NCBI GenBank assembly: GCA_021845865.1
Contig: JAJZVC010000009.1
Span: forward strand, 8,218-72,217
Direction: 5' to 3'
DNA from: Pseudomonadota bacterium
Lineage (GTDB): Bacteria > Pseudomonadota > Gammaproteobacteria > Burkholderiales > UBA9220
DNA length: 64,000 nt
The notes below the pieces were generated by a model that saw only the letters and a list, made by a program, of their open reading frames with translations, was not told where the DNA came from and ran no database searches. Made by a program: the position numbers and the translations under genes. This document shows positions 3,463 to 37,879 of this stretch, one piece after another (the stretch's first letter is position 1; the number at the start of each line of letters is the position of its first letter).

Positions 3463-3464
3463 GA

Positions 3465-4157: not shown

Positions 4158-4174
4158 AGTCAGGACAGGGTACG

Positions 4175-5878: not shown

Positions 5879-5910
5879 TTGAATTTCCCTCTAAGGAGCC
5901 TGTCTCGTCT

Positions 5911-11816: not shown

Positions 11817-11822
11817 GCGGGG

Positions 11823-12761: not shown

Positions 12762-12841
12762 GGAATAGTGACTGATGCCCCATTATATCGTTCAGTCCAT
12801 CGCTATGACCACACGGTGGGATGGTGGTTACCGCCCTCTAG

Positions 12842-12853
12842 CGGAAATTTCCG
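12842..12853. promoter_or_regulatory. Perfect 12-bp palindrome CGGAAATTTCCG in the divergent intergenic region (possible operator)
   Basis: Read directly from the sequence. It lies between the divergent starts at 12761 (minus) and 12909 (plus). A second inverted repeat, CCAGGCC-AAAT-GGCCTGG, is at 12869-12886. Confidence 0.2.
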
Positions 12854-12908
12854 AGGAGTTATCATGGACCAGGCCAAATGGCCTGGGTGATAATGGAAAA
12901 AATTCTTA

Positions 12909-16207: not shown

Positions 16208-16209
16208 CC

Positions 16210-16872: not shown

Positions 16873-16876
16873 GCCC

Positions 16877-17878: not shown

Positions 17879-17882
17879 TGCC

Positions 17883-18698: not shown

Positions 18699-18705
18699 AG
18701 CGGTT

Positions 18706-19605: not shown

Positions 19606-20744
19606 CGGACAAGAAAAATATCCCTTTCGGCAAGCCTTTCATCGCCGGCAAGGAGCTGTACTACATTGCCCAGGCCGTGATGGAAGGGCATTTGTCCGGT
19701 GACGGTCCCTTTTCCGCCCGCTGCGAAAACTGGCTGGAACGCCATATCGGCGCGCCCAAAGCCCTATTGACGCCTTCCGGGACGGATGCCCTGGAATTGG
19801 CGGCGCTGCTGCTGGATATCGGGCCGGGGGACGAAGTCATCATGCCGTCCTTTACCTTCGTTTCCACGGCAACGGCCTTTGTGCTGCGGGGAGCAGTGCC
19901 GGTGTTCGTGGACATCCGGGAGGATACCCTCAACCTGGACGAGCGTCTGGTGGAAGCCGCCGTCACGCCCCGTACCCGTGCCATCGTGGCGGTTCATTAC
20001 GGCGGCTGCGGCTGCGAAATGGACGCCCTGCGGGCGATCGCGGACCGGCATGGGCTGGCGCTGGTCGAGGATGCCGCCCATGCCCTCGGCGCCAGCTACC
20101 GGGACAAGCCCCTGGGCGGTTTCGGCGACCTGGCCTGTTTCAGTTTCCACGAAACCAAGAATGTGATTTCCGGCGAGGGGGGCGCCTTGGTGGTCAATCG
20201 TCCCGAGCTGGTGGAACGAGCCGCCGTCATCCGTCAGAAGGGCACCAACCGTCAGCAGTTCCTCGCTGGGCAGACCGACAAATACACCTGGGTGGATATC
20301 GGCTCATCGTTCGTTGCCAGCGAAATCGTTGCGGCTTTCCTTTGGGGACAGTTGGAGCGGGTGGAAGAAATTACCGCCAAACGGATGAATATTTGGCGGC
20401 AGTATCACTCGGCGTTGGCTCCCTTGGCAAAGCGAGGCGAGGTTTCCCTGCCGGAACCGCCGGCCCATTGCCATGTCAATGGGCATATTTTCTATCTGCT
20501 GGTACGGGACGAGAACGCGCGGAACTCCTTGTTGAGGCAGCTTAATGGGCAGGGAGTCAATGCGGTGTTCCATTACGTGCCCCTCCACTCCTCGCCGGCC
20601 GGCTTGCGTTATGGGCGGAGCCACGGAAATTTGGCGGTGACGGAATCCGTGGCCCAGCGGCTGTTGCGCTTGCCGTTATTTTTCGACATGGAAAGCGATG
20701 ACGTGGAGAGGGTAGTGGCGGCCGTCTCGGCGTGTCATGCCTAG
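19602..20744 (+). CDS. WecE/DegT-family PLP-dependent sugar aminotransferase
   Basis: ORF 19500-20744 trimmed to ATG 19602 (ATGA overlap). Contains MTDKKNIPFGKPFIAGKELYYIAQAV, GDEVIMPSFTFVSTA and SFHETKNVISGEGGA. Confidence 0.85.
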   Translation: MTDKKNIPFGKPFIAGKELYYIAQAVMEGHLSGDGPFSARCENWLERHIGAPKALLTPSGTDALELAALLLDIGPGDEVIMPSFTFVSTATAFVLRGAVPVFVDIREDTLNLDERLVEAAVTPRTRAIVAVHYGGCGCEMDALRAIADRHGLALVEDAAHALGASYRDKPLGGFGDLACFSFHETKNVISGEGGALVVNRPELVERAAVIRQKGTNRQQFLAGQTDKYTWVDIGSSFVASEIVAAFLWGQLERVEEITAKRMNIWRQYHSALAPLAKRGEVSLPEPPAHCHVNGHIFYLLVRDENARNSLLRQLNGQGVNAVFHYVPLHSSPAGLRYGRSHGNLAVTESVAQRLLRLPLFFDMESDDVERVVAAVSACHA

Positions 20745-20784: not shown

Positions 20785-23037
20785 TTAAGCGGGTCTTCGT
20801 GCCCAGAATTGATACATTCCGGAAAATTGGGCCGGGTGCGCTTTTTCCCATTCATGCCAAGACCCCAGATCGCACATGCCCTGGTCTTCTGGGTAGCGGT
20901 CCCGGTATTTCAGCGGAATAGCCGGGCCGCTGAATTCAAAGCCAAGGAACTGGAGCCTCAAGGCCTCGATCATGGTGGCAATCTCATCCAGGCCGAATTC
21001 ACGCTCGTGCACATGAAACAATAGATCGCGGCAGGTGCTGAGGGTATAGAAGTCGTGCCTTACCGTGATGGCTGACCAGTCTGACGGGGCCTCCCGGGCG
21101 AGGGCCTGGGCCCGCACGGTACGGATTTCGTCCGCCGCGCCGACCAGTCCACGTTTGCGGATCGCTTCTTGCAAGGGTTTCAGGTCGGCGCGTCCCAGCC
21201 GGCTGTAGAGGCCGATTTTCATTACCCCTCCCGGCGCGAGGAGGTTCGCGAGGATGCGCCAGGCGCCGAGGGTGTCGTCCATGTGGTGCAGGACGCCGAC
21301 GGATTCAATGACGTGAAAATGCTCCGGCCAAGACGTCAAATTCAGGATGTCCGCTTGGGCAAAATGAATGTTCGTATGGCCGAGCTCCCTTGCCTTGCGG
21401 GCGGCATAGGCGAGGCTGGCGCGGCTGAGATCGATGGCCAGGATATCCGCCGAGGGGAAGCGGCGTGCCGTCAAGATGGCATTGAGACCGGTGCCGGTGC
21501 CGGCGATGAGGATTCTGGGCGACGCCGGCAGACCGAAAGGAGAATGGCCGGGAAAGAGGGTGGCCATGGCTTGGCTGGGTGAGCCGGCGGGGGCGAGGAG
21601 AGGAACGGAGTTCCAGCGAGGATAGGGGTTTTCCTCGTATTGCTGCCGCACCCGTGCGGATAGGCCCTGGGCGATGGGGGTCAGGCTTGGCAGGGTCGCG
21701 GCGATTTCCATTTCCTCTTGCGGTTCCGAGACCTGCTGGCGAAAAAGCCTATCCAGGCAGGGCGGCAGGGCCCCGCGCTCAGGGAGGGGGATAGGGAGGG
21801 AGGAGAGAGGCCGGTAGGCGGCGTAGACGGCCAGGGCTCCATGGACGTCGGGCCCGGCCAGGGAAAGCTGGGATAGACGTTCCCCCAAGAGGTCCAGTTG
21901 CTGTTTTTCCTCCGCGGTCAGCATGAAAACGTATTCGTTGTGGAAACACTGCTCGGCGAGGGCCGTGGCGAGTTCGAGCTGTTCCGATGGAAAGCGCGGG
22001 GTGTCGAGGACGTCAGCGAGCCACTGTTTGCGCAGGTCGGTAAGACGGATTTCCCACAGGGGGTGGTTGACGAGCCCATGCCGAAGCACCGCCAGCAACA
22101 GGGGGTGAGGCTGATTTGGCGCCGGTCCGTTCCCGTGTCCGGGGACGAGTCCCAGCAGATGCCATGCGGCGGAGGACAGGGCCGTCGTTTCCGACCAGCC
22201 CTCCTTCAGGGCGGTGGCCAGCAGGTTGGCATGAGACGGCGCGTATTGTGCCGGGCGGTATTGGCACAATACGTTCCCCGCGAGAACCTTCAGCCCGAGA
22301 TGTTCGGGGGACCGGCTTAGTCCGTCCATGGCGATGGCTAGAGCGGCGGCGTGGTCGCCCAGGCGGTGGTGTGCGTAGGCCTGGTTGTGCAAGATGTCGG
22401 GCCGCGCCGGGGCGAGCCGGGCGGATTGACGGTAGGCGGCGAGGGCTTCCTGATGATAGCCCAGTCCTCCCAGGGCGTTTCCCAGGGTGTTGGTCAAGTC
22501 GGCGTCTTCGGGGAAGCGCTGGGAGGCGCGCTGGAGCAGATCGACGGCTTCAGCGGCCCTGGCGTGGCCGAGGAGCAGGCTTCCCAGATTTATCCACGGC
22601 GCCGGCCACGCCGGGGCGAGTTTGATGGTCCGCTGGTAAGCCGCCATGGCTTCGTCGTCCTTCCCGGCGTCGTGCTGGGCACGGGCCAAATCGAACAGGA
22701 ATTCCGGCTCGCCGGGCTGAAGCTGCGCGGCGCGTTCAAGAAGAGGGAGGGCTTCGTCGTGGTCATGTCGAAGCGCAAGGGCCAGCCCCAGCATGTGCAG
22801 TACCGATGGGTCCATGGGGGCGTTTTCATGTGCCGTGCGGCAGAGGTTCTCGGCTTCGGCTAGCTGGCCTGTTTGCATTGCATGGCGGGCCTGTGCGAGG
22901 AGGGCGGTGATGTCCATGGCCATATCCTGAGGGCTGTTTTCCGGCTTGAGTGAGGAGAGCAATTGTGTGATGCTGTCAGAGCCAATGAAGGGCACGGCGT
23001 CCCGCATCCTGGGGATGGACGGGCGCGCCGGCCTCAA
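20785..23037 (-). CDS. TPR-repeat protein fused to a class I SAM-dependent methyltransferase
   Basis: 750-aa ORF (TTG 23037, with alternative ATGs at 23007 and 22923). TPRs (HMLGLALALRHDHDEALPLLERAAQLQPGEPEF...) are followed by QYEENPYPRW and the MT core ILIAGTGTGLNAI...VIESVGVLHHMDD. Confidence 0.75.
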   Translation of the reverse strand: MRPARPSIPRMRDAVPFIGSDSITQLLSSLKPENSPQDMAMDITALLAQARHAMQTGQLAEAENLCRTAHENAPMDPSVLHMLGLALALRHDHDEALPLLERAAQLQPGEPEFLFDLARAQHDAGKDDEAMAAYQRTIKLAPAWPAPWINLGSLLLGHARAAEAVDLLQRASQRFPEDADLTNTLGNALGGLGYHQEALAAYRQSARLAPARPDILHNQAYAHHRLGDHAAALAIAMDGLSRSPEHLGLKVLAGNVLCQYRPAQYAPSHANLLATALKEGWSETTALSSAAWHLLGLVPGHGNGPAPNQPHPLLLAVLRHGLVNHPLWEIRLTDLRKQWLADVLDTPRFPSEQLELATALAEQCFHNEYVFMLTAEEKQQLDLLGERLSQLSLAGPDVHGALAVYAAYRPLSSLPIPLPERGALPPCLDRLFRQQVSEPQEEMEIAATLPSLTPIAQGLSARVRQQYEENPYPRWNSVPLLAPAGSPSQAMATLFPGHSPFGLPASPRILIAGTGTGLNAILTARRFPSADILAIDLSRASLAYAARKARELGHTNIHFAQADILNLTSWPEHFHVIESVGVLHHMDDTLGAWRILANLLAPGGVMKIGLYSRLGRADLKPLQEAIRKRGLVGAADEIRTVRAQALAREAPSDWSAITVRHDFYTLSTCRDLLFHVHEREFGLDEIATMIEALRLQFLGFEFSGPAIPLKYRDRYPEDQGMCDLGSWHEWEKAHPAQFSGMYQFWARRPA

Positions 23038-23129: not shown

Positions 23130-25599
<2,470 letters not shown>

Positions 25600-25601
25600 A
25601 G

Positions 25602-26759
25602 ATGATTCCTTACGGTCGGCAAGACATCTCGGATCGTGATATTCAGGCCGTTGTCGATATCCTGAAATCAGACTGGCTTACCCAGGGGCCGGCGGTGGAG
25701 CGATTCGAAACAGCGGTTTCCCACTATTGCGGCGCCCCTTATGCCGTTGCTGTCAGCAGCGCCACGGCGGCGCTGCATCTGGCCTGTCTGGCAGCCGGTC
25801 TGGGACCGGGGGATATCCTGTGGACGTCTCCCAACAGCTTTGTCGCTTCCGCCAACTGCGCGCTCTATTGCGGCGCCAGTGTGGATTTCGTCGACATTGA
25901 GCCAGCCACCGGCAACCTGAGCGTGGCCAAGCTGGAAGAAAAACTGGTTGAAGCACAGCAACAAAACAGTCTGCCCAAGGTGGTGGTGCCAGTGCATTTT
26001 GCTGGCCAACCCTGTGACATAGCGCCCATTGCAGAACTGGCGCGGTGCTATGGCTTCGTGGTCATTGAAGACGCCTCCCACGCCATTGGCGCCAGTTACC
26101 AGGGTGGCAAGATTGGCAACTGTGCCCATGCCGATTTCACGGTGTTTAGTTTTCATCCCGTCAAGATCGTCACCACCGGGGAAGGCGGCATGGTGCTGAC
26201 CCGGTCGGCGGAACATTACCAGCGGCTGTTGCGCCTGCGCTCTCATGGCATCACCCGTGACCCCGTCGAAATGGTCGGCCCCAGCGAGGGGCCCTGGTAT
26301 TACCAGCAGGTCGAACTGGGGTTCAATTACCGCATCACCGACATCCAGTGCGCCCTCGGCGCAAGCCAGATGGCACGCTTGGATGACTTTGTCGCCCGAC
26401 GAGCGGCGCTGGCCGAACGCTATCGCCAGAAACTTTCCGGCTTACCGCTGCGTGTTCTGGAACGGCGAGCGGACAGGACGTCTGCTTGGCACCTGTTCGT
26501 GGTTTGCCTCAAGCTGGATGAACTGACTGTTACGCGCCGCGAAGTCTTCGAACGGCTGCGCAATGCCGGCATCGGCGTCAACGTCCATTACATCCCCATT
26601 CACACCCAGCCCTATTACCAGCGACTGGGCTTCCATCACGGCGACTTTCTGGCAGCGGAACAGTATTACCGCGAGGCGCTGACCCTGCCGCTGTATCCAG
26701 GACTGAGTGAGGTGGAGCAGGACAAGGTTGTCTCATTACTTGCGGAAGCGTTGCAATGA
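25602..26759 (+). CDS. pseC: UDP-4-amino-4,6-dideoxy-N-acetyl-beta-L-altrosamine transaminase, PseC
   Basis: 385-aa ORF with MIPYGRQDISDRDIQAVVDILKSDWLTQGPAVERFE and the PLP-Lys region SFHPVKIVTTGEGGM. Confidence 0.9.
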   Translation: MIPYGRQDISDRDIQAVVDILKSDWLTQGPAVERFETAVSHYCGAPYAVAVSSATAALHLACLAAGLGPGDILWTSPNSFVASANCALYCGASVDFVDIEPATGNLSVAKLEEKLVEAQQQNSLPKVVVPVHFAGQPCDIAPIAELARCYGFVVIEDASHAIGASYQGGKIGNCAHADFTVFSFHPVKIVTTGEGGMVLTRSAEHYQRLLRLRSHGITRDPVEMVGPSEGPWYYQQVELGFNYRITDIQCALGASQMARLDDFVARRAALAERYRQKLSGLPLRVLERRADRTSAWHLFVVCLKLDELTVTRREVFERLRNAGIGVNVHYIPIHTQPYYQRLGFHHGDFLAAEQYYREALTLPLYPGLSEVEQDKVVSLLAEALQ

Positions 26760-27457
26760 ATGTTGCCATCATTCCCGCCCGTGGCGGCAGCAAGCGCATT
26801 CCCCGCAAGAACATCAAATCCTTCCTGGGTAAGCCGATGATTGCCTATTCCATCGAGACAGCGCTGGCGAGCGGCCTGTTCGACAGGGTGCTGGTGTCAA
26901 CCGACGACGAGGAAATTGCTTCAGTGGCCCAGGCACACGGCGCGGAAACCCCTTTTTTGCGTCCCAAAGAACTGGCCGACGAACACACCGGCACCAATGC
27001 CGTGGCAGGCCATGCCCTAGCCTGGTTACGCGAGAGCGGAAAAGAATATGCCCATGCCTGCTGTATCTACGCCACGGCGCCGTTCATGACCGTGGCGGAT
27101 TTGCAGGAAGCACACCGCCTGTTGCAGGAAAGCGGCAAGTCCTTTGTCTTTCCGGTCACCACGTTTCCTTTTCCCGTTCAGCGGGCCGTGCGGCTCACCG
27201 CGCAGGGGGAGGTGGAGGCGATATACCCGGAATATGCGTCCACCCGTTCCCAGGACCTGGAGGAAGCCTACCATGACGTGGGGCAATTCTACTGGGGACG
27301 GACCGAGGCGTTCCTTTGCGGCAAGGCTCTGCTCACTCACGATTCCCTGGGGTTGGTGATTCCCCGCCATCGTGCCCAGGATATCGATACCGCTGAAGAT
27401 TGGGAGCGGGCGGAACTGATGTATGAAGTGCTGCAGGCTAGGGAAAATCGCCCATGA
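26756..27457 (+). CDS. pseF: Pseudaminic acid cytidylyltransferase, PseF
   Basis: 233-aa ORF with the AIIPARGGSKRIPRKNIK motif and 4-nt overlaps on both sides. Confidence 0.85.
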   Translation: MNVAIIPARGGSKRIPRKNIKSFLGKPMIAYSIETALASGLFDRVLVSTDDEEIASVAQAHGAETPFLRPKELADEHTGTNAVAGHALAWLRESGKEYAHACCIYATAPFMTVADLQEAHRLLQESGKSFVFPVTTFPFPVQRAVRLTAQGEVEAIYPEYASTRSQDLEEAYHDVGQFYWGRTEAFLCGKALLTHDSLGLVIPRHRAQDIDTAEDWERAELMYEVLQARENRP

Positions 27458-28500
27458 AGGTGGTGGTGCGTGCGGATGCTTCTGTCGAGCTGGGGGGCGG
27501 GCACGTCATGCGCTGTCTGGCCCTTGCGGAGCGCCTCCGTGAAGGCGGTGGCGAGGTAGGGTTCCTCTGCCGCGATTTGCCCGGCAACTTGAACAGCGTG
27601 GTCGCCGGGCAGGGTTTTACCGTTTTTCCCCTTCCACCAGGGGAACGCGATGCGGAATTCAGCTGGGAAGCGGACGTTCGGCATAGCCTCGCTGCACTCG
27701 AATCCTGGGGCGAGTTGGATTGGCTCATCGTGGACCACTACAGTCTGGATATCCGCTGGGAGACGGCCATGCGTAGTCGTGTGAGAGGTATCCTGGCGAT
27801 CGACGATCTGGCCGACCGTCCCCATGGCTGTGATTTGCTCCTGGACCAGAATTATCATGTCGCCGCGGAACAGCGCTATCGTGGTCTGGTGCCGCAGTCC
27901 TGTCGCGTCATGTTGGGGCCGGACTATGCCTTGCTGCGGCCGGAGTTCGAGAGCATGCGCAAGAAAATGCGCAGCAGAAGTGGTACGGTTGCTCGCCTGC
28001 TGATTTTTTTTGGCACCACGGACCCTGGCGATGAAACCAGCAAGGCCCTGGCGGCCTTGGCGCTTTTGCCCCTGGAAAAACTCCGGGTGGACGTGGTGGT
28101 GGGAATGACCAACCCTCATGGGGAGCAGGTTCGCAAGCAGTGTGCCGCCATGTCCAACGTGTACTTCCATCGCCAGCCTGAAAATCTTGTGGCATTGATG
28201 GCGGGGGCTGATCTGGCCTTGGGGGCCGGCGGGAGCATTCATTGGGAGCGCTGCGTCCTCGGCTTGCCGGCACTGGTTGTTGCGGTGGCCGCTAATCAGA
28301 TCGCCATCTCGGAAGCCTTGGCGCGGAAAGGGGCTATCGTTTATCTCGGCACGGCAGAGCAAGTCACGGTGGCGCTGATAGCGGAAAGGCTTTTGCAGGC
28401 CATGGCAGAACCAGAAGCCCTGAGAAGCATGTCGGCCATGGCATCCACCTTGACGGATGGTGGTGGTGCACGGCGTGTAGCAGGTATGATGCGTCTATGA
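27454..28500 (+). CDS. pseG: UDP-2,4-diacetamido-2,4,6-trideoxy-beta-L-altropyranose hydrolase, PseG
   Basis: 348-aa ORF with the N-terminus MKVVVRADASVELGGGHVMRCLALAERL. There is no fused GNAT domain. Confidence 0.85.
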   Translation: MKVVVRADASVELGGGHVMRCLALAERLREGGGEVGFLCRDLPGNLNSVVAGQGFTVFPLPPGERDAEFSWEADVRHSLAALESWGELDWLIVDHYSLDIRWETAMRSRVRGILAIDDLADRPHGCDLLLDQNYHVAAEQRYRGLVPQSCRVMLGPDYALLRPEFESMRKKMRSRSGTVARLLIFFGTTDPGDETSKALAALALLPLEKLRVDVVVGMTNPHGEQVRKQCAAMSNVYFHRQPENLVALMAGADLALGAGGSIHWERCVLGLPALVVAVAANQIAISEALARKGAIVYLGTAEQVTVALIAERLLQAMAEPEALRSMSAMASTLTDGGGARRVAGMMRL

Positions 28501-29147
28501 GAATTTCCATCCTTTGTTCCGATGACAAGCACCCCGTGTATCCTTGGTTGGAGGGCTGGCTGAAGCGTCAGGCTGCGCATCAAGTCGAACTGGTGCAGCA
28601 GAAAGATCGGCTGAGTGGTGGTGAGATTCTTATTCTTGTCTCTTGCCATGACTTCATTGATCGCGAAACCCGAGCAAAATATGGTGTGACACTCGTTATT
28701 CATGCCAGTGACCTTCCCCGGGGCCGTGGTTGGTCTCCTCACATATGGCAGGTTCTCGAGGGAAAAAACAAGATAGTCGTGACCCTTTTGGAGGCCGATG
28801 ACAATATCGATAGCGGTGCTATCTGGACTCAGAAGCTGATTAGTCTCGAAGGGCACGAACTGGTGGATGAAATCAATGCCGCCTTGTTTGATGCCGAAGT
28901 GGCCCTGATGGATTTTGCCGTGGAAAATTACGGCAAGATCACGCCTCGTTCTCAAGACGGGAGAGAGGCCACTTATTACCCACGGCGTATCCCGCAGGAC
29001 AGCCGTATCGACCCCTACCGCGATTTGGCTAGCCAGTTTGACCTTTTGAGAGTGGCTGACCCGTGCCGCTACCCGGCTTTCTTTGACCTGCGTGGCAAAC
29101 GGTATGCAATCAGAATTGAAAAAATCGGAGATGCGGAAAGCTCATGA
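28497..29147 (+). CDS. Formyltransferase-fold protein occupying the pseH position
   Basis: 216-aa ORF with VIHASDLPRGRGWSP (compare HxSLLPxxRG) and EADDNIDSGAI. ATGA-type 4-nt overlaps link it to pseG and pseI. The gene is AT-richer than its neighbours. Confidence 0.7.
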   Translation: MRISILCSDDKHPVYPWLEGWLKRQAAHQVELVQQKDRLSGGEILILVSCHDFIDRETRAKYGVTLVIHASDLPRGRGWSPHIWQVLEGKNKIVVTLLEADDNIDSGAIWTQKLISLEGHELVDEINAALFDAEVALMDFAVENYGKITPRSQDGREATYYPRRIPQDSRIDPYRDLASQFDLLRVADPCRYPAFFDLRGKRYAIRIEKIGDAESS

Positions 29148-30196
29148 CGTCCCACATTACCATCGGCGCGTATCCGGTTAGTGGCCATCACCCACCTCTG
29201 GTCGTGGCTGAAATGTCCGGCAACCACAACCAGTCGCTGGAGCGGGCCTTGGCCATTGTCGAAGCGGCAGCAAAGGCAGGTGCGCATGCTCTAAAAATCC
29301 AGACCTATACGGCGGATACCATGACCCTCAATCTGCCGGGAGAGGACTTTGCCATCGCCGACCCCGACAGTCTGTGGACAGGGAAAAACCTCTATCAACT
29401 CTACCAAGAGGCTCACACACCCTGGGAGTGGCACCAGCCCATCTTTGACCGTTGCCGGGAGCTGGACATGGTGGCATTCAGCACCCCCTTTGACGAAACC
29501 GCCGTGGACTTTCTTGAAAGCCTCAACGTACCGGCCTACAAGATCGCGTCCTTTGAGAACACCGACCTGCCGCTGATCCGCAAGGTGGCGGCTACCGGAA
29601 AGCCACTTATCATATCCACAGGCATGGCCACGGTGGCCGAATTGGACGAAACGGTGCGGGCTGCGCGGGAGGCGGGCTGTCGCGACCTGATATTGCTCAA
29701 ATGCACCAGCACCTATCCGGCGACACCGGAGAACAGCAATATCGCCACCATTCCCCATATGCGCGAACTGTTCGGCTGCGAGGTGGGCCTCTCCGACCAC
29801 ACGCCGGGTATCGGTGCGGCCGTGGCGAGCGTGGCGTTGGGGGCGTGCCTGATCGAGAAACACTTTACCCTGTGTCGGGCGGAGGGTGGCGTAGATGCGG
29901 CCTTTTCCCTCGAACCGGAAGAATTGGCGGCTCTGGTAACGGAGAGCGAACGGGCTTGGCTGGCGCTTGGCGAGGTGCGTTATGGCCCTGGCGAGGCAGA
30001 GCGCAAGTCGATGGTATTCCGCCGTTCGCTGTATGTTACCCGTGACGTGGCGGCGGGAGAGGTCTTCACGGCGGAAAACGTGCGCGCCATACGTCCGGGT
30101 TTCGGCTTGCCGCCCAAATATATCGAGGTTGTCCTTGGCAAGACTGCACGCTGTGCGGTCAAAGCAGGGACACCCCTGTCATGGGATATTTTATGA
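29144..30196 (+). CDS. pseI: Pseudaminic acid synthase, PseI
   Basis: 350-aa ORF with PLVVAEMSGNHNQSLERALAIVEAAAKAGAHALKIQTY and a C-terminal SAF-like VTRDVAAGEVFTAENVRAIRPG. Confidence 0.9.
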   Translation: MTSHITIGAYPVSGHHPPLVVAEMSGNHNQSLERALAIVEAAAKAGAHALKIQTYTADTMTLNLPGEDFAIADPDSLWTGKNLYQLYQEAHTPWEWHQPIFDRCRELDMVAFSTPFDETAVDFLESLNVPAYKIASFENTDLPLIRKVAATGKPLIISTGMATVAELDETVRAAREAGCRDLILLKCTSTYPATPENSNIATIPHMRELFGCEVGLSDHTPGIGAAVASVALGACLIEKHFTLCRAEGGVDAAFSLEPEELAALVTESERAWLALGEVRYGPGEAERKSMVFRRSLYVTRDVAAGEVFTAENVRAIRPGFGLPPKYIEVVLGKTARCAVKAGTPLSWDIL

Positions 30197-30205
30197 GGAG
30201 GCAGG

Positions 30206-31474
30206 ATGGCTGATGTCGACCAGTTGATTCAGTGGAAGACCAACGCCTGGAAGGATTCCAATATGGTGGCCTGGTACTCCGGTCGCATGGTCGAATCCAG
30301 TGGCACTAATCCACTGAAGAATGCCGTGGAAGTGGGGCTGTGCGGAAAGTACGCGACAGGACCGCGCATCCTCGACGTCGGCATCGGCACCGGGCGTGGG
30401 TCGCTGCCCCTGGCGCGCCAGGGACGGGAAGTGGTCGGCATCGACAGCTCCCAGGCCATGCTGGACGAAACCCGCCGCCTGGCGGGGGATACCCCGATCA
30501 CCTTGCAGCAGGGGGATGTGGAAAGGCTGTCCTTTCCGGAGGCGTCGTTCGATACGCTGCTGTCCCTGAACGTGGTGGTGCATTTCCCCCATTGGCGCAG
30601 GCTCCTGGCCGAATGGAAGCGGGTGGTGCGGCCCGGCGGCAGGATCGTTTTCGATGTGCATTCCCTGGACAACTACCGTTGCGCCTATGGCGAGGGCGTG
30701 ACGGAACAGGGATTGCTGCAGCAGGTGGAGCAGAGCGGCGACTTTTCCACCTACGTCCTACGCGTGGCCGCCGAGGACATGGTTGCCGAGGCGGACAGGC
30801 TCGGTCTCCGGGTGGCGGCGCTGGTCCCCTACGGGGCCTTTCTCGGCGGTGGCAACGTCAATTATCTGATGGAAGGCCTGGAACGGCAGTGGGGTTGGAA
30901 ACGGTTGTTGTCCTGGATGGCCCTGGACGAGCGCTTCCATGCTTTCGGCCTGTATCTCGAACAGGAGCTGGTGGCAAAACTGAGCACACGGGTTACCGGC
31001 CGCTACATGGTGGTGCTCGACAACGTCGCCGACCCGGAAGCCAACCGGGCCTGGCTGGCGCGCAATGCGGAAATGAATCGTCTGATGCGGTCGAGCGACT
31101 CCCTCGCGGAGCTGTTCGATTTCATTGGTTTGCGCGGCCAGGAATTTCGCGGGGCGCTCAACCATCACGTGGGCGCTAGTTTGCGCAACTTCACCTTCTT
31201 TTATGCGCTTTATCGGGAAATGATGGAGAAGGGGTGGGGGGAGTTGCCGGAGGGTATTTTGGAACAACAGCACAAGGCCCGGGTTCTTGCTTGGCGCAAA
31301 AACGAACGCGCCGACGACGAGGCGCTGCGCATGGCCCGGACATGGTATGCCCAGCCTGAAATGAAGCAGGCGACGGAGAATCGCGGTATTTCGATGGGCG
31401 AGGCGATGGAGTATTTCCTGGTGGAGCGGCTTCTTACCGACTATTTGGGCATGTTCACGGGGGAGCGCGTATGA
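30206..31474 (+). CDS. Class I SAM-dependent methyltransferase with an unassigned ~220-aa C-terminal extension
   Basis: 422-aa ORF with ILDVGIGTGRGSL, VVGIDSSQAMLD and FDTLLSLNVVVHF. I recognise no motif in the C-terminal half. Confidence 0.7.
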   Translation: MADVDQLIQWKTNAWKDSNMVAWYSGRMVESSGTNPLKNAVEVGLCGKYATGPRILDVGIGTGRGSLPLARQGREVVGIDSSQAMLDETRRLAGDTPITLQQGDVERLSFPEASFDTLLSLNVVVHFPHWRRLLAEWKRVVRPGGRIVFDVHSLDNYRCAYGEGVTEQGLLQQVEQSGDFSTYVLRVAAEDMVAEADRLGLRVAALVPYGAFLGGGNVNYLMEGLERQWGWKRLLSWMALDERFHAFGLYLEQELVAKLSTRVTGRYMVVLDNVADPEANRAWLARNAEMNRLMRSSDSLAELFDFIGLRGQEFRGALNHHVGASLRNFTFFYALYREMMEKGWGELPEGILEQQHKARVLAWRKNERADDEALRMARTWYAQPEMKQATENRGISMGEAMEYFLVERLLTDYLGMFTGERV

Positions 31475-34400
31475 GCGGTCATGCCATCGTTTCCTGCCTA
31501 TGGCAAAAGAATATCGGCGTCTTGGAGTCCTACGCCAAGCGGCACCCCGGCGTATCGATCATTATCCCGTCCACCTTCATTGGCAAGTCCGATGAGGAGA
31601 GGCTGCTGGCCGCGGGCGGCAAGGTCGTCTACCTGGAGAAGCTGTTGCCGGCTTCGGAAATGGATGCGGTCAAGAACTTGGCCAACGGTATCCTGGCGCG
31701 CACTGGGGAAATGCTGGCCAGCACGTCCTGGCGGTCTTACTGCGTCAGCCAGGGTTGGGACGGAGAGCGATTCGCGCCGATTCTGGCCGCACGCGCCAAT
31801 GCGGAGGCCCTCAGCTTCGTCGTTCTGCTGGAGGCGCTGGAACAGGCCAAGAAACAGTATGAAATCGCCCTGGCGGTGGTCAACGAAGACCTGATGCCGG
31901 TGGGCCGGGTGGTGGCGAATTGGGCGAGGAACAACGGCATCCCCAGCCTGGTGGTTTCCCACAGCCTGATCCTTTTCCGCCCCTACACCGTGCACGACAC
32001 CCTCCACGCCGACGTGATGGCGCTTTTCGGCGAGCGGGGAGCGGAGGGCTACCTCGACCTCGGCGTTGAGGCCAAAAGGTTGCGTGTTGTCGGCAACCCG
32101 GCCTGGGACAGGTATTTCGCGCTGAAAAGGGAGCGCTCGGCCATCCGGCGGGAAGTGGCGGGGCGCTTGGGCCTGGATGCGGCCCGCCCGATCGTGCTGT
32201 TCGGCACCACTTGGGCGGCCAATCTGTCGGCCTTCGGCGATGAAAGAATCTACAGCAAGACCCTGGCGGCCTTTTTCCGCGGCTGCGCCCTATTGCGGGA
32301 CCAAGGGATGGCTGTTCAGCCGGTGATCAAGGACCGCATGCAGAACGCCGCGTTCAGCCATGATTTGATTCCTTCCGTGGCGGCCGAATCCGGGTTCCGC
32401 CCAGGGGAATACGCCTATACCGCCGAGGGCGTGGAGTCCCTGATCGTGGCGGCGGACGTGGTGGTGTCGGTGGAATCCAACATGTCGGTAGAGGCCATGA
32501 TGGCGGGGGTGCCCGCCATCAACATGGTGACGGAATTCGGCATGCGCCTGGGGCCGTGCTTCGATGCGGATGCGGGCATCGTCGAAAGCGAGCCGGACGA
32601 ATTGGCGATGTGGCTGCGGCGGACGCTGACCGACGATGCCTTCCGATCGGGGCTGCTGGCCGCGATGGAGGCCAAGGCGCCCTATTACAACATGGGGGTC
32701 GACGGCAATGCGACTTTGCGCATGGTGGCGCTGATGGAAGAACTCGCTCTGCCGGTCAAGGGCAACGACAGGAAAAAATACATCTGGCAGACTCTGCTCA
32801 ACGTCAGCGAATCGGACACCAACCAATACCACAACTGGTGCCGCAGCGACCTGGTCGAGATGTTCCGCCACCCGCCCAGGCTGGTGCTGGATATCGGCTG
32901 CGGCGCCGGGGCCACGGGAGAATACATCAAGAAGCGCTATCCCGCCGCTCGGGTGGTGGGCATCGAGGTCAACGCCGGCGCGGCGAGGGTGGCGGCTACC
33001 CGCATCGACCAGGTGCTCCAGGGTAAATTCGAGGATTTCGACCTGGAGGCCGAGGGCATCCGCAAGGGGAGCATCGATACCGTCATCGTCGCCGACGTCC
33101 TGGAGCACATGTACGATCCCTGGGGGGTAATGGCCGGCATCGCGCCCTATCTCACTCCCGACGCGCAGGTGGTGGCGAGCATTCCCAACACTCGCAACCT
33201 GGTGCTGATGAGCGAATTGGCGGATGGAGGCTGGACCTACGATTCCTGGGGCCTGCTGGACATTACCCACATCCGCTTTTTCACCTTGCGCGAAATCCGA
33301 CGCTTTTTCCACGAAACCGGCTACCGCATCGCCCGCCTGCATTACAACATGGACAGCCGCCTCGGCGAGTTCTACCAGCGCAATAAGGACAAGGCCCAGG
33401 TGGACGTGGACATGGGAAAACTCACCATCAAGGGGGTGAGCCGCGACGATTTGGCGGAACTATGCACCTGGCAATTCTATGTCCTGGCCGAGCCGGGAGC
33501 CGTCGCTGACGAAGCGTTTCAGGCGGAGGAAGCCAGGCGTGCTGGCGATGAGGAAAAGAAAAGCGCCTACGAGAGGTGGCAGGAATACCGACAGTTCGAC
33601 GAGGCCACGGCGGCCATCGTCAATCAACGCATAGAACGGTGGGAAACGCTACCGCGCATTCATCTCGCCCTGTTGGCGTCGCCTGTCGATGTGGAGCGCA
33701 TCGGGGACACCCTGCGCTCCCTGGCCGTCCAAAATTACCAGAACCTGGCGGTCACGGTGGTCTCCCCTGCGGCGGCCCCCTCGGCTTGGAAGGACACGGA
33801 GAAGCTCTCTTGGCTGCGCAGCCCGGGGGACAACCTGCTTCATGGGGTGAACCAAGCCCTGCTGGCCTCGCCCGCGGACTGGGTGGGGATCGTGGATGCC
33901 GGCGACAGGCTGGCCGACGCCGCCCTCGTGTTCCTGATGGAGGGGGCGGTCGAGAACCCGGCATGGCAGTTAATATACAGCGACGAGGATGTGCTCCAGG
34001 CTGACGGCGAATACGGCCTGCCTCATTTCAAACCCGACTTCAACCTCGATATGCTGCGCAGCTTCCCCTACGTGGGGGGGCTGCTGCTGGCCCGGCAAAG
34101 GCTGTTCAGTGATTTGAGCGGGTTCCGGCCAGGCTGTCTGGGGGTCGAGGAGTACGATCTTGCATTCCGGGCCTATGAAGCGGGGGGCGAGGCGATCATG
34201 GGTCATTGTCCGGGGGTGTTGTACCACCGGCGTGCCGATGGGGGGCACTGCCGCAAGCCGGCGCTGGAACTGGTCGAAAGCGGGCGTCAGGTAGTCGCCG
34301 AGCACCTGCGGCGCCAGGGGATTGCCGCCGAAGTGGAAAAGGGGCTGTTTCCCGGCAGCTATCGGGTCCGCTACCGTCACGAGGGCGCGCCCCTCGTGTC

Positions 34401-36234
34401 CATTCTGGCCGCGGTCCGCGACCAGGTGGACAAGGTGCAGCGCCTGGTTGAAACGCTCCTGGCCAACACCCGCTATCCCAATTTCGAGCTGGTGCTGCTC
34501 AATAGTGCCAGCACCTCGGACGCGGCCCGCGCCTTCCTCGCCGGTATCCAGGCCCTCGGCGATTCGCGGTTGAGGGTGCTCGACCACCCGGTGAAGGAGC
34601 CGCTTCCTGCATTGCACAACATACTGGCTGGACAGGCACGGGGCGACTACCTGTTGTTCATGTATTTCGATAGCGCCGCCTTGCAGCCTGACTGGCTGGA
34701 CAGCCTCATGGAGCATGGCCGCCGGCCCGACGTGGGGGCGGTGGGCCCGAAGCTGCTGAATGCGGACGGCACGGTGCGGCAAACCGGCATCATCCTGGGC
34801 CTCGACGGCAGCGCCGGCACCGTCTTTTCGGGTCATCCCCTGGATTATCCCGGCTATTTCGGCCGCGCCCATATGGAACAGGATTTCTCCGCCCTCGGCG
34901 GCGGTTGCCTGCTGACGTCCAAGGCGCTGTTCGATGCCGTGGGCGGCTTCGACGGCGCGGCTTTGCCCCAACGCTTCGCCGAAGTGGATTACTGTCTCCG
35001 CTTGCGGGAAAAAGGCTACCGCCTGGTATGGACGCCCCACGTGAGCCTTCTCAACGATGGTCTTGCCGCGGCGATGAAGTGGGTCGAGTCGGAGGCGGGC
35101 GAGGACGAGGGCGAGGAGGAGGCCTTCCTACGCCGCCATCTCAAGGCGCTGGCCCTTGACCCGGCCTATAATCCCAATCTCAGCCTGGCCGGCGAAGCCA
35201 GTTTCAAAATCGAAACCCGCAAGCCCCTGGTTTGGAATCCCTTGCCCTGGCGGCCCCTTCCCCGCGTGCTGGCCCAGCCCGGAGACAGTGCCGGCTGCGG
35301 CGAATACCGTATTTTTTCCCCCATGCGCGCCTTGACCCAGGCGAAGAAAATTCAGGGGTGGGCGGATTTCCATGTTTTTTCGCCACCGGAAATGGAACGC
35401 CTGGACGTGGATGCCATCATTCTTCAACGCCAGACGCACCCGGACCAGGTGGACGCCATCGCGCGGCACAAGAAATACTCCCGCGCGTTCCGTGTTTACG
35501 AACTGGACGATTTGATCACCCACGTTCCGGTGCGGAACGCGCACAAGGACACCATGCCCAAGGATGTGGAGTTCTGGCTGCGGAAAGGGGTGGGCCTCTG
35601 CGATCGATTCGTGGTTTCCACCGTTCCGCTGGCCGAGGCCTTCAGGGGATGGAACCCGGACATACGAGTGGTGCCCAATTTCATCGAGAAGGCCCGCTGG
35701 GGTGAACTGAACCCCCAGCGCCGCCAGGGGAGGAAACCGCGAGTCGGCTGGGCGGGGGGCGTCGGACATGCCGGGGACCTGGAAATAATCACCGACGTGG
35801 TCAAGGAGTTGGCCGGGGAAGTGGAATGGGTGTTTCTCGGCATGTGTCCCGAAGGCATCCGCCAGTATGTGCAGGAGTTTTATCCCGGCGTGCCCATTCC
35901 CCTCTATCCGGCAAAATTGGCGAGCCTGAATCTGGACCTGGCTCTGGCTCCCTTGGAGCTGCATCCCTTCAACGAAGGCAAAAGCCACCTCCGTCTTCTG
36001 GAGTACGGCATTCTGGGCTATCCAGTCGTTTGCACCGACATTTACCCCTACCAGGGGGAGTATCCCGTCAAGCGGGTAAAAAATCGTCACCGTGACTGGG
36101 TGGAGGCTATTCGAGAAAGAATCAACGACTTGGATGCTTGCGCACGGGAAGGGGATGTTTTGCGCGAGCACGTGCGTTCCAGATGGATGCTGGAGGATAA
36201 TTTGGATTGGTGGATGCGGGGCTGGCTACCGTAA
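31471..36234 (+). CDS. 1587-aa multidomain enzyme: GT-B-like N-domain, class I methyltransferase, two GT2 domains, C-terminal GT-B (GT1/4-like) domain
   Basis: Uninterrupted 4764-nt ORF, ATGA-coupled to the upstream gene. Motifs include ADVVVSVESNMSVEAMMAGVPAINM, LVLDIGCGAGATG (nt 32881), PRIHLALLASP...IVDAGDRL...SDEDVL, LVSILAAVRDQ...FELVLLNSAS...GAVGPKLLNADGTVRQTG...AEVDYCLRLREKGYRLVWTPH, and RVGWAGGVGHAGDLEII...LLEYGILGYPVVCTD. Confidence 0.8.
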   Translation: MSGHAIVSCLWQKNIGVLESYAKRHPGVSIIIPSTFIGKSDEERLLAAGGKVVYLEKLLPASEMDAVKNLANGILARTGEMLASTSWRSYCVSQGWDGERFAPILAARANAEALSFVVLLEALEQAKKQYEIALAVVNEDLMPVGRVVANWARNNGIPSLVVSHSLILFRPYTVHDTLHADVMALFGERGAEGYLDLGVEAKRLRVVGNPAWDRYFALKRERSAIRREVAGRLGLDAARPIVLFGTTWAANLSAFGDERIYSKTLAAFFRGCALLRDQGMAVQPVIKDRMQNAAFSHDLIPSVAAESGFRPGEYAYTAEGVESLIVAADVVVSVESNMSVEAMMAGVPAINMVTEFGMRLGPCFDADAGIVESEPDELAMWLRRTLTDDAFRSGLLAAMEAKAPYYNMGVDGNATLRMVALMEELALPVKGNDRKKYIWQTLLNVSESDTNQYHNWCRSDLVEMFRHPPRLVLDIGCGAGATGEYIKKRYPAARVVGIEVNAGAARVAATRIDQVLQGKFEDFDLEAEGIRKGSIDTVIVADVLEHMYDPWGVMAGIAPYLTPDAQVVASIPNTRNLVLMSELADGGWTYDSWGLLDITHIRFFTLREIRRFFHETGYRIARLHYNMDSRLGEFYQRNKDKAQVDVDMGKLTIKGVSRDDLAELCTWQFYVLAEPGAVADEAFQAEEARRAGDEEKKSAYERWQEYRQFDEATAAIVNQRIERWETLPRIHLALLASPVDVERIGDTLRSLAVQNYQNLAVTVVSPAAAPSAWKDTEKLSWLRSPGDNLLHGVNQALLASPADWVGIVDAGDRLADAALVFLMEGAVENPAWQLIYSDEDVLQADGEYGLPHFKPDFNLDMLRSFPYVGGLLLARQRLFSDLSGFRPGCLGVEEYDLAFRAYEAGGEAIMGHCPGVLYHRRADGGHCRKPALELVESGRQVVAEHLRRQGIAAEVEKGLFPGSYRVRYRHEGAPLVSILAAVRDQVDKVQRLVETLLANTRYPNFELVLLNSASTSDAARAFLAGIQALGDSRLRVLDHPVKEPLPALHNILAGQARGDYLLFMYFDSAALQPDWLDSLMEHGRRPDVGAVGPKLLNADGTVRQTGIILGLDGSAGTVFSGHPLDYPGYFGRAHMEQDFSALGGGCLLTSKALFDAVGGFDGAALPQRFAEVDYCLRLREKGYRLVWTPHVSLLNDGLAAAMKWVESEAGEDEGEEEAFLRRHLKALALDPAYNPNLSLAGEASFKIETRKPLVWNPLPWRPLPRVLAQPGDSAGCGEYRIFSPMRALTQAKKIQGWADFHVFSPPEMERLDVDAIILQRQTHPDQVDAIARHKKYSRAFRVYELDDLITHVPVRNAHKDTMPKDVEFWLRKGVGLCDRFVVSTVPLAEAFRGWNPDIRVVPNFIEKARWGELNPQRRQGRKPRVGWAGGVGHAGDLEIITDVVKELAGEVEWVFLGMCPEGIRQYVQEFYPGVPIPLYPAKLASLNLDLALAPLELHPFNEGKSHLRLLEYGILGYPVVCTDIYPYQGEYPVKRVKNRHRDWVEAIRERINDLDACAREGDVLREHVRSRWMLEDNLDWWMRGWLP

Positions 36235-36243
36235 AAAATTTTC

Positions 36244-36270
36244 TAAAGTTTCCCTTGGGGCGGACGATAA
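36244..36270 (+). promoter_or_regulatory. Sigma-28 (FliA) promoter of fliC
   Basis: TAAAGTTT (36244-36251), an 11-nt spacer, then GACGATAA (36263-36270). The enterobacterial FliA consensus is TAAAGTTT-N11-GCCGATAA, so 15 of 16 positions match. It lies 89 nt upstream of the fliC ATG. Confidence 0.75.
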
Positions 36271-36358: not shown

Positions 36359-37879
36359 ATGCCGCAGGTAATTAATACCAATATCGCGTCTCTGAATGCT
36401 CAGCGCCAGCTGAACAGCTCCCAGAGCGCTCTTTCCACCGCGCTGCAGCGCCTGTCTTCCGGTCTGCGGATTAACTCCGCCAAGGACGATGCCGCCGGCT
36501 TGGCGATTTCCGAGCGTTTCACCGCTCAAATTCGCGGCATGGATCAAGCTCAGCGCAACGCCAATGATGGCGTGTCCCTGGCGCAGACCGGCGAAGGCGC
36601 CCTGGGTCAGATGGGCGACCTGCTGCAGCGCGTGCGTGAGCTGGCAGTGCAGTCCGCCAACGCCACCAACACCGCCAGCGACCGCCAGGCCCTGAACCAG
36701 GAAGTTTCCCAGCTGGTGTCGGAACTGGACCGTTTTGCCCAGACCACCGACTTCAACGGCCTGAAGCTGCTGGACGGCTCCTTTACCTCCGCCACCTATC
36801 AGATCGGCGCCAACGCCAACCAGGTGATTACGGCCACCTCCACCAACTTCCGTACCGACAAATACGGCACCAACCAGCTGCTGTCCAATTCCTCCATTAC
36901 CCTGGCTAGTAGCGCGGGCGTTTCCGCAGCCACCACCACCACGGGCGGCGCGGCTACGCTGACCATCAACGGTTCCTCGGGTTCCGGCACGGTGTCCCTG
37001 GCCAACAGCACGGCCGACAGCGCCAAGGCCCTGGCGAATTCCATCAATACCCAGTCTCAGACTGGGGTGAAGGCTTCCGCCATGACCCAGTTTGACGTTA
37101 CCCTCACCACCAACAGCAACTACGTGGTGAACGTGCTGGGCACCAACAGCGCCGCTGAGCAGGTTTCCTTCACCGTCGGCGCGAACAACGATGCCGATGG
37201 CCTGTCCGCCGCGATCCAGGCCTTCAACGACAAATCCTCCAAGACCGGCGTGACCGCCAAGCTGAACGACGCCGGGACGGGCATCACCCTCACCGCGCTG
37301 GACGGCAGCAACGTCACCCTGGGTACCACTGCCGCCACTTCCGGCGCCATTACCGTGGCGGCTACTGCCACGACCAGCCGTGAGGCGACCACGGCAGCAA
37401 CTCAGGGTACCGCGGCTGGTGCGCTGTCTGGCGGTAACTCCGTGACCGTGATGGGTACGGTGACCCTGGACTCCGACAAGTCCTACTCCATCACTCAGAG
37501 CGCCACGGCAGCATCCGGTCTGTTCGGTACCGGCGCGGCCAATAGCCAGTCTTCGTCTTCGCTGCAGAAGGTTTCTGGGCTCGATATCACCTCCGCGGTG
37601 CTGGCGACCAAGGCCATCCGCATCGCGGACAACGCCCTGACCCTGATCAACGGTCAGCGCGCCGCCTTCGGTGCCTTGCAGAACCGCTTTAGCGCGACGA
37701 TCTCCAACCTGCAGACTTCTTCCGAGAACATGCAGGCTGCCCGTAGCCGGATCCGCGACGCCGACTTCGCGGCGGAAACCGCGAACCTGACCCGTGGTCA
37801 GATCCTGCAACAGGCCGGTACGGCGATGTTGGCCCAGGCTAACGCCTTGCCCAATAGCGTCCTGACCCTGCTGCGGTAA
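36359..37879 (+). CDS. fliC: Flagellin
   Basis: 506-aa ORF with the conserved N-terminus [54 protein letters not shown] and C-terminus [47 protein letters not shown]. The central domain is rich in Ser/Thr/Ala. Confidence 0.97.

Follow-up and report, generated by a model that had tools for sequence, protein, structure and literature searches.

What is the task of an enzyme that combines four glycosyltransferase-like (GT) modules and one methyltransferase (MT) module in a single polypeptide, and whose gene ends just before the promoter of a flagellin gene? The question is raised by an open reading frame (ORF) for a protein of 1587 aa in a stretch of 64,000 nucleotides from a Pseudomonadota bacterium (Burkholderiales, UBA9220; contig JAJZVC010000009.1, hereafter referred to as the window), where it lies between an operon for a pseudaminic acid (Pse)-type sugar and the flagellin gene fliC. 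Comparison of its sequence, predicted structure, and gene neighborhood with those of its relatives makes it very probable that the protein is a multifunctional flagellin glycosylation enzyme of the Fgt family. Residues ~700-1587 are identified by homology as an Fgt-type flagellin O-glycosyltransferase core (the core), and the new part appears to be the unit joined to this core of a known kind, namely an N-terminal GT-B module (N) followed by a methyltransferase (together N-MT). The ORF and its modules are as follows.

31471..36234, plus strand: five-module ORF of 1587 aa, stop codon within the range (translation, full-length homologs)
31471..32805, plus strand: N module, GT-B fold, aa 1-445 (AlphaFold2 (AF2) model, Foldseek, NCBIfam)
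32806..33390, plus strand: class I S-adenosylmethionine-dependent methyltransferase module (MT), aa ~446-640 (Pfam, PDB 3cc8)
33391..33630, plus strand: linker/helical region between MT and GT2a, aa ~641-720 (last ~20 residues helical in the core model; no domain matched)
33631..34350, plus strand: GT2a, divergent GT-A, aa ~721-960 (K4CP profile match, AF2 model)
34351..35157, plus strand: GT2b, canonical GT2 (GT-A), aa ~961-1229 (Pfam Glycos_transf_2)
35158..36231, plus strand: C module, divergent GT-B of the GT1/GT4 clan, aa 1230-1587 (Pfam on the family, hhalign, model)

A flagellin glycosyltransferase core beside fliC

A tblastn search of one genome per species returned 584 relatives of the protein, most of which match only residues ~700-1587 of the query, at 40-50% identity. 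The core was found in Pseudomonas (chlororaphis, migulae, frederiksbergensis, cichorii, taeanensis, peli, and others), Dyella, and Lonsdalea, and also in Stellaceae (Alphaproteobacteria), Methylobacillus, and a Nitrospiria metagenome-assembled genome (MAG). Among the 53 loci where fliC was detected, it lies at most 1 kb from the core ORF in 42, and this adjacency spans four bacterial classes (Beta-, Gamma-, and Alphaproteobacteria and Nitrospiria). The link to flagellin drawn in an initial annotation of the window, made from its sequence alone, is strongly supported by this synteny.

The core has probable counterparts in the Pseudomonas enzymes Fgt1 (P. syringae/amygdali), FgtA/PA1091 (P. aeruginosa b-type), and the protein in the OrfN position (a-type), all of them multidomain; the Pseudomonas proteins encoded in these positions share a homologous GT-A, GT2, and GT-B core with the window protein at 40-54% identity. 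The C module is ~50% identical (48-54% to the P. syringae and P. aeruginosa proteins). Both kinds of gene are found immediately ahead of fliC-flaG-fliD, and the enzymes are in both cases known or presumed to act in the cytoplasm on Ser/Thr of flagellin. Deletion of fgt1 gives non-glycosylated flagellin and deletion of fgt2 partially glycosylated flagellin, and Fgt1 is reported to transfer rhamnose to Ser (PMC12915359, PMC3927599). In P. cichorii and P. serbiensis, tandem genes for proteins of 1192 and 970 aa are followed by a 309-aa ORF and a 282-aa fliC, an arrangement that, judged by species, gene order, and ORF size, corresponds to the fgt1-fgt2-orf3-fliC island of P. syringae. The 1192-aa P. 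cichorii protein (locus L072) is composed of an extra GT2 and GT2a-GT2b-C, and the 970-aa protein of GT2a-GT2b without C.

A still shorter form is encoded in one P. aeruginosa genome (L081, 8001-9815), where a 604-aa protein of GT2b and C, with a C domain 54% identical to that of the window protein, directly precedes a-type fliC-flaG-fliD-fliS-fliT-fleQ. This protein may be a minimal flagellin O-glycosyltransferase of the Fgt family. The C domain occurs in the Fgt1-like and OrfN-position proteins only and is lacking from the Fgt2-like gene; since enzymes of the priming type have it and the extender does not, it could be the protein-directed transferase or a flagellin-docking domain. The gene for the 604-aa protein has a LysR regulator gene on one side and a-type fliC on the other, with no other glycosylation genes nearby.

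The window protein differs from the Pseudomonas enzymes in what stands before the core and in the expected glycan. The N-terminal extension is here a GT-B of nonulosonic acid (NulO) cassettes with an MT, in Fgt1-like proteins an extra GT2, and in FgtA a CD0244/TagF-like phosphotransferase. The glycan would involve a Pse-type sugar in the window island, as opposed to rhamnose-viosamine or deoxyhexose-phospho-dimethylthreonine in Pseudomonas.

This comparison also changes how unusual the protein seems. The initial annotation had held that characterized flagellin glycosyltransferases carry a single transferase domain, which is not the case: the protein in the Fgt1 position of P. cichorii consists of GT2, GT-A, GT2, and GT-B, and PA1091/FgtA, already described as bifunctional, is a GT2 glycosyltransferase fused with a CD0244-type phosphotransferase in one gene, with PA1088 as its partner methyltransferase (PMC11833859). 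The claim that no equivalent had been described was likewise too strong, as GT-methyltransferase fusions have been catalogued in the flagellin glycosylation islands of Enterobacteriaceae in a genomic survey (PMC4875605). With the single-domain premise gone, the 1587-aa protein is best placed, from its architecture, as one member of a modular series of core fusions. No report singling out or characterizing the exact N-MT-core architecture was found in the literature searched.

Modular fusions of the core

Core-containing ORFs range from 845 to 2061 aa. Pfam searches of the N-terminal extensions of representative core loci gave the following combinations.

L072 (P. cichorii) and L052 (Pseudomonas sp. 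BMS12): extra GT2
L036 (Dyella flava), 7619-12622: GT92 and MT
L045 (Phytopseudomonas straminea), 7373-12667: MT and TagF-like Glyphos_transf
L011 (Proteobacteria MAG), 7760-12427: FkbM-type MT and RgpF
L015 (Thiobacillus MAG): MT
L026 (Andreprevotia sp., 2061 aa), 6599-12784: TagF-like, MT, and RgpF
L034 (Chitinimonas lacunae): epimerase-like GT-B and GT2
L019 (Stellaceae MAG), 8885-12703: sulfotransferase

Other forms among the protein matches are N-MT-GTB-core (~1980 aa), N-MT-RgpF-core, MT-core, N-core (1311 aa), and core-core. The earlier suggestion that a single polypeptide carries out several tailoring activities in sequence fits with a core that is fused to so many glycan-tailoring modules in its relatives. 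Fusion to sulfotransferase, TagF-like, or MT modules suggests that the flagellin glycans of the organisms concerned are sulfated, phosphorylated, or methylated, and the attached modules could help to predict flagellin glycan chemistry from sequence. The Pseudomonas-type Fgt enzymes would accordingly be recast as a conserved three-domain core with genome-specific tailoring modules (methyltransferase, phosphotransferase, sulfotransferase, RgpF, extra GTs), and the core could be a scaffold for glyco-engineering.

Integrity of the ORF and full-length homologs

The ORF runs through 1587 codons without an internal stop, and its immediate neighbors are given below.

30206..31474, plus strand: 422-aa methyltransferase gene, ATGA-coupled to the 1587-aa ORF
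36244-36270, plus strand: sigma-28-type fliC promoter, TAAAGTTT-N11-GACGATAA, after a 9-nt gap from the end of the ORF at 36234
36359..37879, plus strand: fliC, 506-aa flagellin (Flagellin_N/C domain matches)

The overlap GTATGAGC joins the stop codon of the 422-aa methyltransferase gene with the ATG of the 1587-aa ORF. The promoter-like site is the single match of TAAAGTTT-N11-GACGATAA in the 64-kb window and has 0 matches in 100 shuffles, and no sigma-70-like promoter or intrinsic terminator was found in the scanned interval from the ORF to fliC. The uninterrupted frame, the ATGA coupling, and the 9-nt distance to the sigma-28 promoter had all been reported in the initial annotation and are confirmed here, and its five domain calls with their approximate boundaries prove correct by Pfam, AF2, Foldseek, and profile matches. 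The GC content of the ORF (62.7%, against 60.2% for the window) is unremarkable.

In a search of 5.8 billion proteins, ~55 full-length homologs (1545-1630 aa) were found at 37-89% identity and 100% query coverage. They come from independent genomes and metagenomes of Chitinimonas, Chitinivorax, Parachitinimonas, Rhodocyclaceae, Hydrogenophilales, and one Pseudomonas species; among named organisms, Rhodocyclaceae and Chitinimonas-type Betaproteobacteria are nearest. The reference-genome collection gave no close match (50% identity or above); the five-module architecture is present in 11 of its loci, among them Formivibrio, Sulfuricella, Thermithiobacillus, Azonexus, Rhodocyclus, Andreprevotia, and Pseudomonas sp. 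EpS/L25. A fusion produced by misassembly or a frameshift, for which a check had been called for, is ruled out because these ~55 independent homologs and 11 loci share the architecture.

Of the five modules, Pfam run on the whole protein recognizes two, the methyltransferase (aa 466-620) and a single GT2 (aa 986-1191), and the others were assigned from family profiles and models. The 1587-aa protein, in which neither a signal peptide nor membrane features were noted, is predicted to be cytoplasmic.

The three modules of the core

The AF2 model of the core (aa 701-1587) has a predicted local distance difference test score (pLDDT) of 93.3 and a predicted template modeling score (pTM) of 0.88, which suggests that the three domains are probably one packed unit. 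Its best Foldseek matches are K4CP (Escherichia coli K4) and PmHS2 (Pasteurella heparosan synthase) with E of 1e-18 to 1e-15, followed by mimivirus R699 and LARGE1 and, after these, polypeptide GalNAc-transferases; the top 50 matches of the whole core are all GT-A matches and none reaches the C domain. K4CP and PmHS2 have the same tandem GT-A arrangement in one chain, but at 11-14% identity, and they serve capsule polymerization and have no GT-B, MT, or link to flagellin.

GT2a of the window sequence gives no Pfam match, and the profile of its 24-sequence family matches the second GT-A (A2) domain of the K4CP chondroitin polymerase with E 2e-9. Its invariant residues include Y-x-D-E-D (836-840) and H912. 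GT2a would be either a second transferase or a scaffold, its catalytic competence being uncertain. GT2b scores 38.1 bits against PF00535 (cut-off 23.3), with D1067 and D1173 (in E-V-D-x-C-L-R) near-invariant, and appears to be a clearly catalytic GT-A.

The C module is the most conserved of the protein, with a mean column identity of 60% and the invariant stretches RVGWAGGxxHxGD (1424-1436) and FN-x-x-KS-x-L-x-x-LE-x-G (1500-1513). The window sequence alone gives no Pfam match in this module; within the family, 18 of 24 sequences match Glyco_trans_1_4 (PF13692) and 12 of 24 match Glyco_trans_1_2 (PF13524). By hhalign the family aligns to a paralogous internal domain of the ~1980-aa variants (99.9%, E 3e-31, 303 columns), which itself passes the PF13524 threshold, and DSSP on the core model gives two beta-alpha-beta halves. 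The family profile found nothing meaningful among PDB sequences, and no fold-library match was specific to C.

The N-MT unit and the nonulosonic acid cassette

Upstream of the 422-aa methyltransferase gene lies the operon that is predicted, from its gene content, to supply a Pse donor activated with cytidine monophosphate (CMP-Pse-type).

24607..30196, plus strand: Pse operon, with pseB, pseC, pseF, pseG (TIGR03590, 301 bits), a formyltransferase-like gene in the pseH position, and pseI

This arrangement is a recurrent one. All 18 loci examined for the N module carry NulO genes (upstream of the fused gene in 11, and as NeuB and PseB/C/F in 7 free-standing contexts), and a ~420-aa homolog of the 422-aa methyltransferase is encoded immediately upstream of N in 17 of the 18, including 6 of the 7 free-standing cases. 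When the 79 core loci are divided by the presence of N, close Pse genes are found in 10 of 11 N-bearing loci and in 5 of 68 without N (Fisher p = 2e-8). The eleventh N-bearing locus (L021, Andreprevotia) has a divergent NeuB, PseF, and PseG set.

It is also clear that N and N-MT exist without the core, as free-standing N proteins of 429-491 aa and N-MT proteins of 637-685 aa (22 word-sharing relatives in a profile search). An exhaustive phmmer search of 1.84 billion representatives with N gave 944 clusters at E <= 1e-3 and 108 at E <= 1e-30, with the N domain almost always at the N-terminus. In L082 (2130-11058) and L084 (2127-11058), PseB-C-F-G-H-I and a ~420-aa methyltransferase gene are followed by a 685-aa N-MT protein, and the cassette lies beside rpsB-tsf-pyrH-frr. 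No flagellin gene, Fgt core, or other GT is encoded within 9 kb in these two loci, N-MT being the sole GT-like protein. From the gene order of the cassette and the co-occurrence of N with Pse genes, N-MT is the terminal module of a conserved nonulosonic acid cassette, and in the window protein this unit is seen, by homology, as fused to the Fgt core.

Two loci deserve separate mention. The Andreprevotia chitinilytica homolog in L021 (10001-15526) has 1841 aa, with a ~375-aa insertion between MT and GT2a, and the divergent NulO cluster upstream of it (two NeuB paralogs at 33-37% identity, PseF at 42%, PseG at 40%) may produce a different nonulosonic acid. L086 was considered as a split form of the enzyme, with an N gene and a gene for a 1008-aa GT2-GT2-GT-B protein, and was set aside because the GT-B has no C-domain match at E 1e-5. 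The 1008-aa protein (11010-14036), encoded two genes downstream of a free-standing N, has a GT-A pair 32% identical to GT2a-GT2b. WsaF-like and GT4 genes follow, and the locus may represent a related system that has diverged or that does not serve flagella.

The MT module is a clear case, with 56 bits against PF13489 (cut-off 27), further matches to PF08242, PF08241, and PF13649, a match to PDB 3cc8 at E 1e-35, and motif I as LDIGCGAG (473-480). The N module is modeled as a two-Rossmann GT-B (pLDDT 90.8, pTM 0.87, from a 37-sequence alignment), whose best Foldseek matches are uridine diphosphate N-acetylglucosamine (UDP-GlcNAc) 2-epimerases, MshA, HepE, and TagF, with E of 1e-10 to 1e-8 and a template modeling score of ~0.55. 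Conserved in the family are VNED (137-140), H164, H175, GNPAWD (208-213), TTW (246-248), K287, and SVESN...E341. The profiles of N and C show no relationship by hhalign, and the two GT-B modules of the protein are hence not duplicates of each other.

When 12 N-domain sequences were scanned one by one against NCBIfam, all 12 matched TIGR04396 (surface carbohydrate biosynthesis protein; best E 6e-8) and 10 matched NF046086, the model of the BFO_1060 family of glycosyltransferases (best E 1.2e-9). The window N domain reaches 26.3 bits against NF046086 (E 3.8e-6, aa 176-266 only), which is below the curated cut-off of 200 bits and means that N is a distant relative of the BFO_1060/Tanf_01245 family, not a member.

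This likeness is of interest for the chemistry. Pseudaminic and legionaminic acid (Leg) matter for motility, immune evasion, and virulence. Knowledge of the transferases of these sugars is scarce, and Tanf_01245 of Tannerella forsythia is one of them, a terminal Pse/Leg-derivative transferase of 445 aa with a TagB-like GT-B whose knock-out loses the nonulosonic acid; BFO_1060 is its ortholog in strain 92A2, and in strain UB4 the corresponding gene stands downstream of the Leg operon and a methyltransferase gene (PMC5420450). With Tanf_01245/TFUB4_00887 the N module thus shares its length of ~445 aa, the TagB-like GT-B, and a gene position after a NulO operon and a methyltransferase. The Tannerella enzyme acts on the lipid- or protein-linked S-layer O-glycan of a general glycosylation system and, unlike the window protein, is unfused and not associated with flagellin. 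The N family, several hundred sequence clusters of free-standing and fused proteins, would be a concrete candidate for nonulosonic acid transfer.

Proposed mechanism and alternative explanations

Taken together, the best explanation overall, and one that we consider reasonably probable, is that two units which also occur separately, the Fgt core and the N-MT unit of Pse cassettes, make up one cytoplasmic flagellin-glycosylating enzyme. That N is a Pse transferase we rate a little short of an even chance. The Fgt core would recognize unfolded or unexported flagellin and attach the initial sugar or sugars to Ser/Thr in its variable domain. The central/variable region of FliC is the presumed substrate, and Ser/Thr make up 22-36% across its aa 150-400. 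The N domain would then transfer the Pse derivative, possibly N-formylated, from its CMP-activated form supplied by the upstream operon onto the flagellin-bound glycan, or possibly onto flagellin itself, and the MT domain would methylate the product; the separate 422-aa methyltransferase may act on the sugar or its nucleotide. The identities of donor and acceptor, the order of the reactions, and any catalysis by GT2a are postulated in this scheme; its observed basis is the domain folds, homology, gene order, modular recombination, and co-occurrence statistics.

The earlier proposal of building on a Pse primer is possible but not favored, since the closest relatives of N add a terminal nonulosonic acid onto a glycan (PMC5420450). 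A stronger version, in which N is a previously unrecognized family of Pse/Leg transferases, distinct from Maf, FlmG, and the Tannerella type and invariably encoded at the end of a NulO operon-methyltransferase-N(-MT) cassette, that caps the flagellin glycan in cis, is on balance doubtful. In that case at least three consecutive steps (priming, Pse capping, and methylation) would be carried out on flagellin by one polypeptide without a lipid carrier, and the product would be a hybrid glycan with Pse as its distal cap and not as the protein-linked sugar.

Several observations weigh against the two-unit account. The fold of N is that of a generic GT-B, about equally near to UDP-GlcNAc 2-epimerases or TagF and to any transferase, and the matches to BFO_1060 and TIGR04396 are far under the curated cut-offs and cover ~90-115 residues. 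The bacterial sialyltransferase motifs D/E-D/E-G and HP, which are reported for Tanf_01245, are not evident on inspection of the N alignment by eye: the invariant E139-D140 precedes L or another residue and not G, and the invariant H164 and H175 have no P after them. In the core, the DXD position of GT2a is AGD, with only D812 kept, and GT2b of the window protein has N1011 where most homologs keep the first Asp (DNGS). The Pseudomonas loci were equated with Fgt1, FgtA/PA1091, and OrfN by species, gene order, and size, and the window ORFs scanned hold no sugar-nucleotide pathway (e.g., rml) to feed the core. Finally, the island encodes an alternative route for Pse in an FlmG-like protein with tetratricopeptide repeats (TPR) and a GT domain, directly upstream of pseB, with similar proteins in L001, L009, and L088.

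23130..24599, plus strand: 489-aa protein of FlmG-like architecture, TPR (aa 1-190) and heptosyltransferase-like GT-B (aa 380-440), directly before pseB

This last point leads to a serious alternative, though we regard it as rather unlikely: the 489-aa TPR-GT would put Pse on Ser/Thr of flagellin, the 1587-aa enzyme would extend Pse or build a separate non-Pse glycan, and N would transfer something other than Pse. The idea draws on FlmG (596 aa, with an N-terminal flagellin-binding TPR domain and a C-terminal GT-B), which is sufficient for Pse transfer (PMC7591256), and on the homologs of the 489-aa protein, which stand upstream of pse genes in L001 and L009 and, as two further copies, beside the N-MT cassette in L088. 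The general context is indeed the one known for FlmG in Caulobacter and for Maf in Campylobacter, Aeromonas, and Clostridium, with a Pse operon beside flagellin genes and cytoplasmic O-glycosylation of flagellin; the 1587-aa protein differs in having neither a TPR nor a MAF_flag10 domain by Pfam (PF01973 has no match in the other window ORFs scanned either), the FlmG-like TPR-GT being separately encoded in the island. Several points speak against this alternative. N or N-MT cassettes occur without a TPR-GT within 9 kb in L082 and L084, no homolog of the 489-aa protein was found in the flank searched in L004, L007, and L008, and the N domain tracks the NulO genes in all 18 loci; the 489-aa protein is likened to FlmG by its architecture.

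Quite improbable, in our estimate, is that N is a TagF/CD0244-type phosphotransferase as in FgtA, which would place a phosphate-linked substituent, activated with cytidine diphosphate, onto a core sugar for tailoring by methyltransferases. PA1091 with its partner PA1088 offers a precedent for such a pairing with a GT2, and true Glyphos_transf modules are fused to the same core in L045 and L026. N also has some likeness to TagF, by Foldseek (E 1e-8), by a profile match to TagF in the PDB (E 0.12 over ~50 residues, in the G-x-P-x-x-D...T-W region), and through weak Glyphos_transf matches in 2 of 12 N-domain relatives (best E 1.6e-5). Against this, the window N domain has no match to Pfam Glyphos_transf (PF04464), the consistent matches of N are those to BFO_1060 (10 of 12) and TIGR04396 (12 of 12), and the TagF-like modules of L045 and L026 give no BLAST match to it. 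The strict linkage of N is to NulO operons, and the sole cytidylyltransferase of these operons is the CMP-NulO synthetase PseF. An enzyme like the UDP-GlcNAc 2-epimerases, which are the top structural matches of N and whose Pfam family Epimerase_2 weakly matches 2 of 12 N-domain sequences, was considered unlikely because the Pse pathway of the operon is complete and needs no 2-epimerase.

That the protein instead polymerizes O-antigen or another polysaccharide in the cytoplasm and terminates the chain by its methyltransferase in the manner of WbdA/WbdD, with a place beside fliC that is incidental, is barely credible: some databases do label relatives "O-antigen biosynthesis protein", the tandem GT-A pair resembles the bifunctional polymerases K4CP and PmHS2, and GT2a-GT2b pairs without a C domain are present in other multidomain GTs away from flagellin (e.g., L086), but fliC adjoins the core across the four classes (42 of 53 loci), the same-position Pseudomonas homologs are required for flagellin glycosylation according to the literature, and no export gene (ABC-transporter, Wzx/Wzy) or lipid-carrier priming gene is present among the window ORFs scanned, which did not include every small ORF. 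The WbdA/WbdD-type polymerization envisaged in the initial annotation therefore finds no support, the window protein having synteny with fliC in place of an ABC-transporter locus.

Further features of the island

Downstream of fliC the flagellar genes continue with flaG, fliD, fliS, fliT, and a fliK-like gene. Within the Pse operon, the place of the GNAT acetyltransferase PseH is taken by a gene for a 216-aa formyltransferase-like protein (28497-29147, plus strand; Formyl_trans_N, ArnA/Fmt-like), which suggests an N-formylated Pse derivative. L001, L002, and L009 have homologs at the corresponding position and L088 has a related gene; L082 and L084 have the usual GNAT. The island encodes four TPR-containing proteins, including the 489-aa TPR-GT, and the other three are as follows.

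12909-14867, plus strand: 652-aa protein, TPR and an unassigned C-terminal part
9825-11816, minus strand: 663-aa protein, TPR and Glyco_trans_1_4
20785-23037, minus strand: 750-aa protein, TPR and methyltransferase

A run of tailoring genes (15305-20744, plus strand) encodes a methyltransferase, a hexapeptide acyltransferase, a second methyltransferase, a PhyH-type dioxygenase, an unassigned 331-aa protein with faint glycoside-hydrolase-like matches, and a DegT aminotransferase. On the minus strand, a sugar-modification block (603-11816) encodes another DegT aminotransferase, a nucleoside diphosphate-sugar 4,6-dehydratase, a WbqC-like protein, a carbamoyltransferase, an AsnB-like amidotransferase, and two radical-SAM/SPASM proteins, which implies that the flagellin glycan may be much more elaborate than Pse alone.

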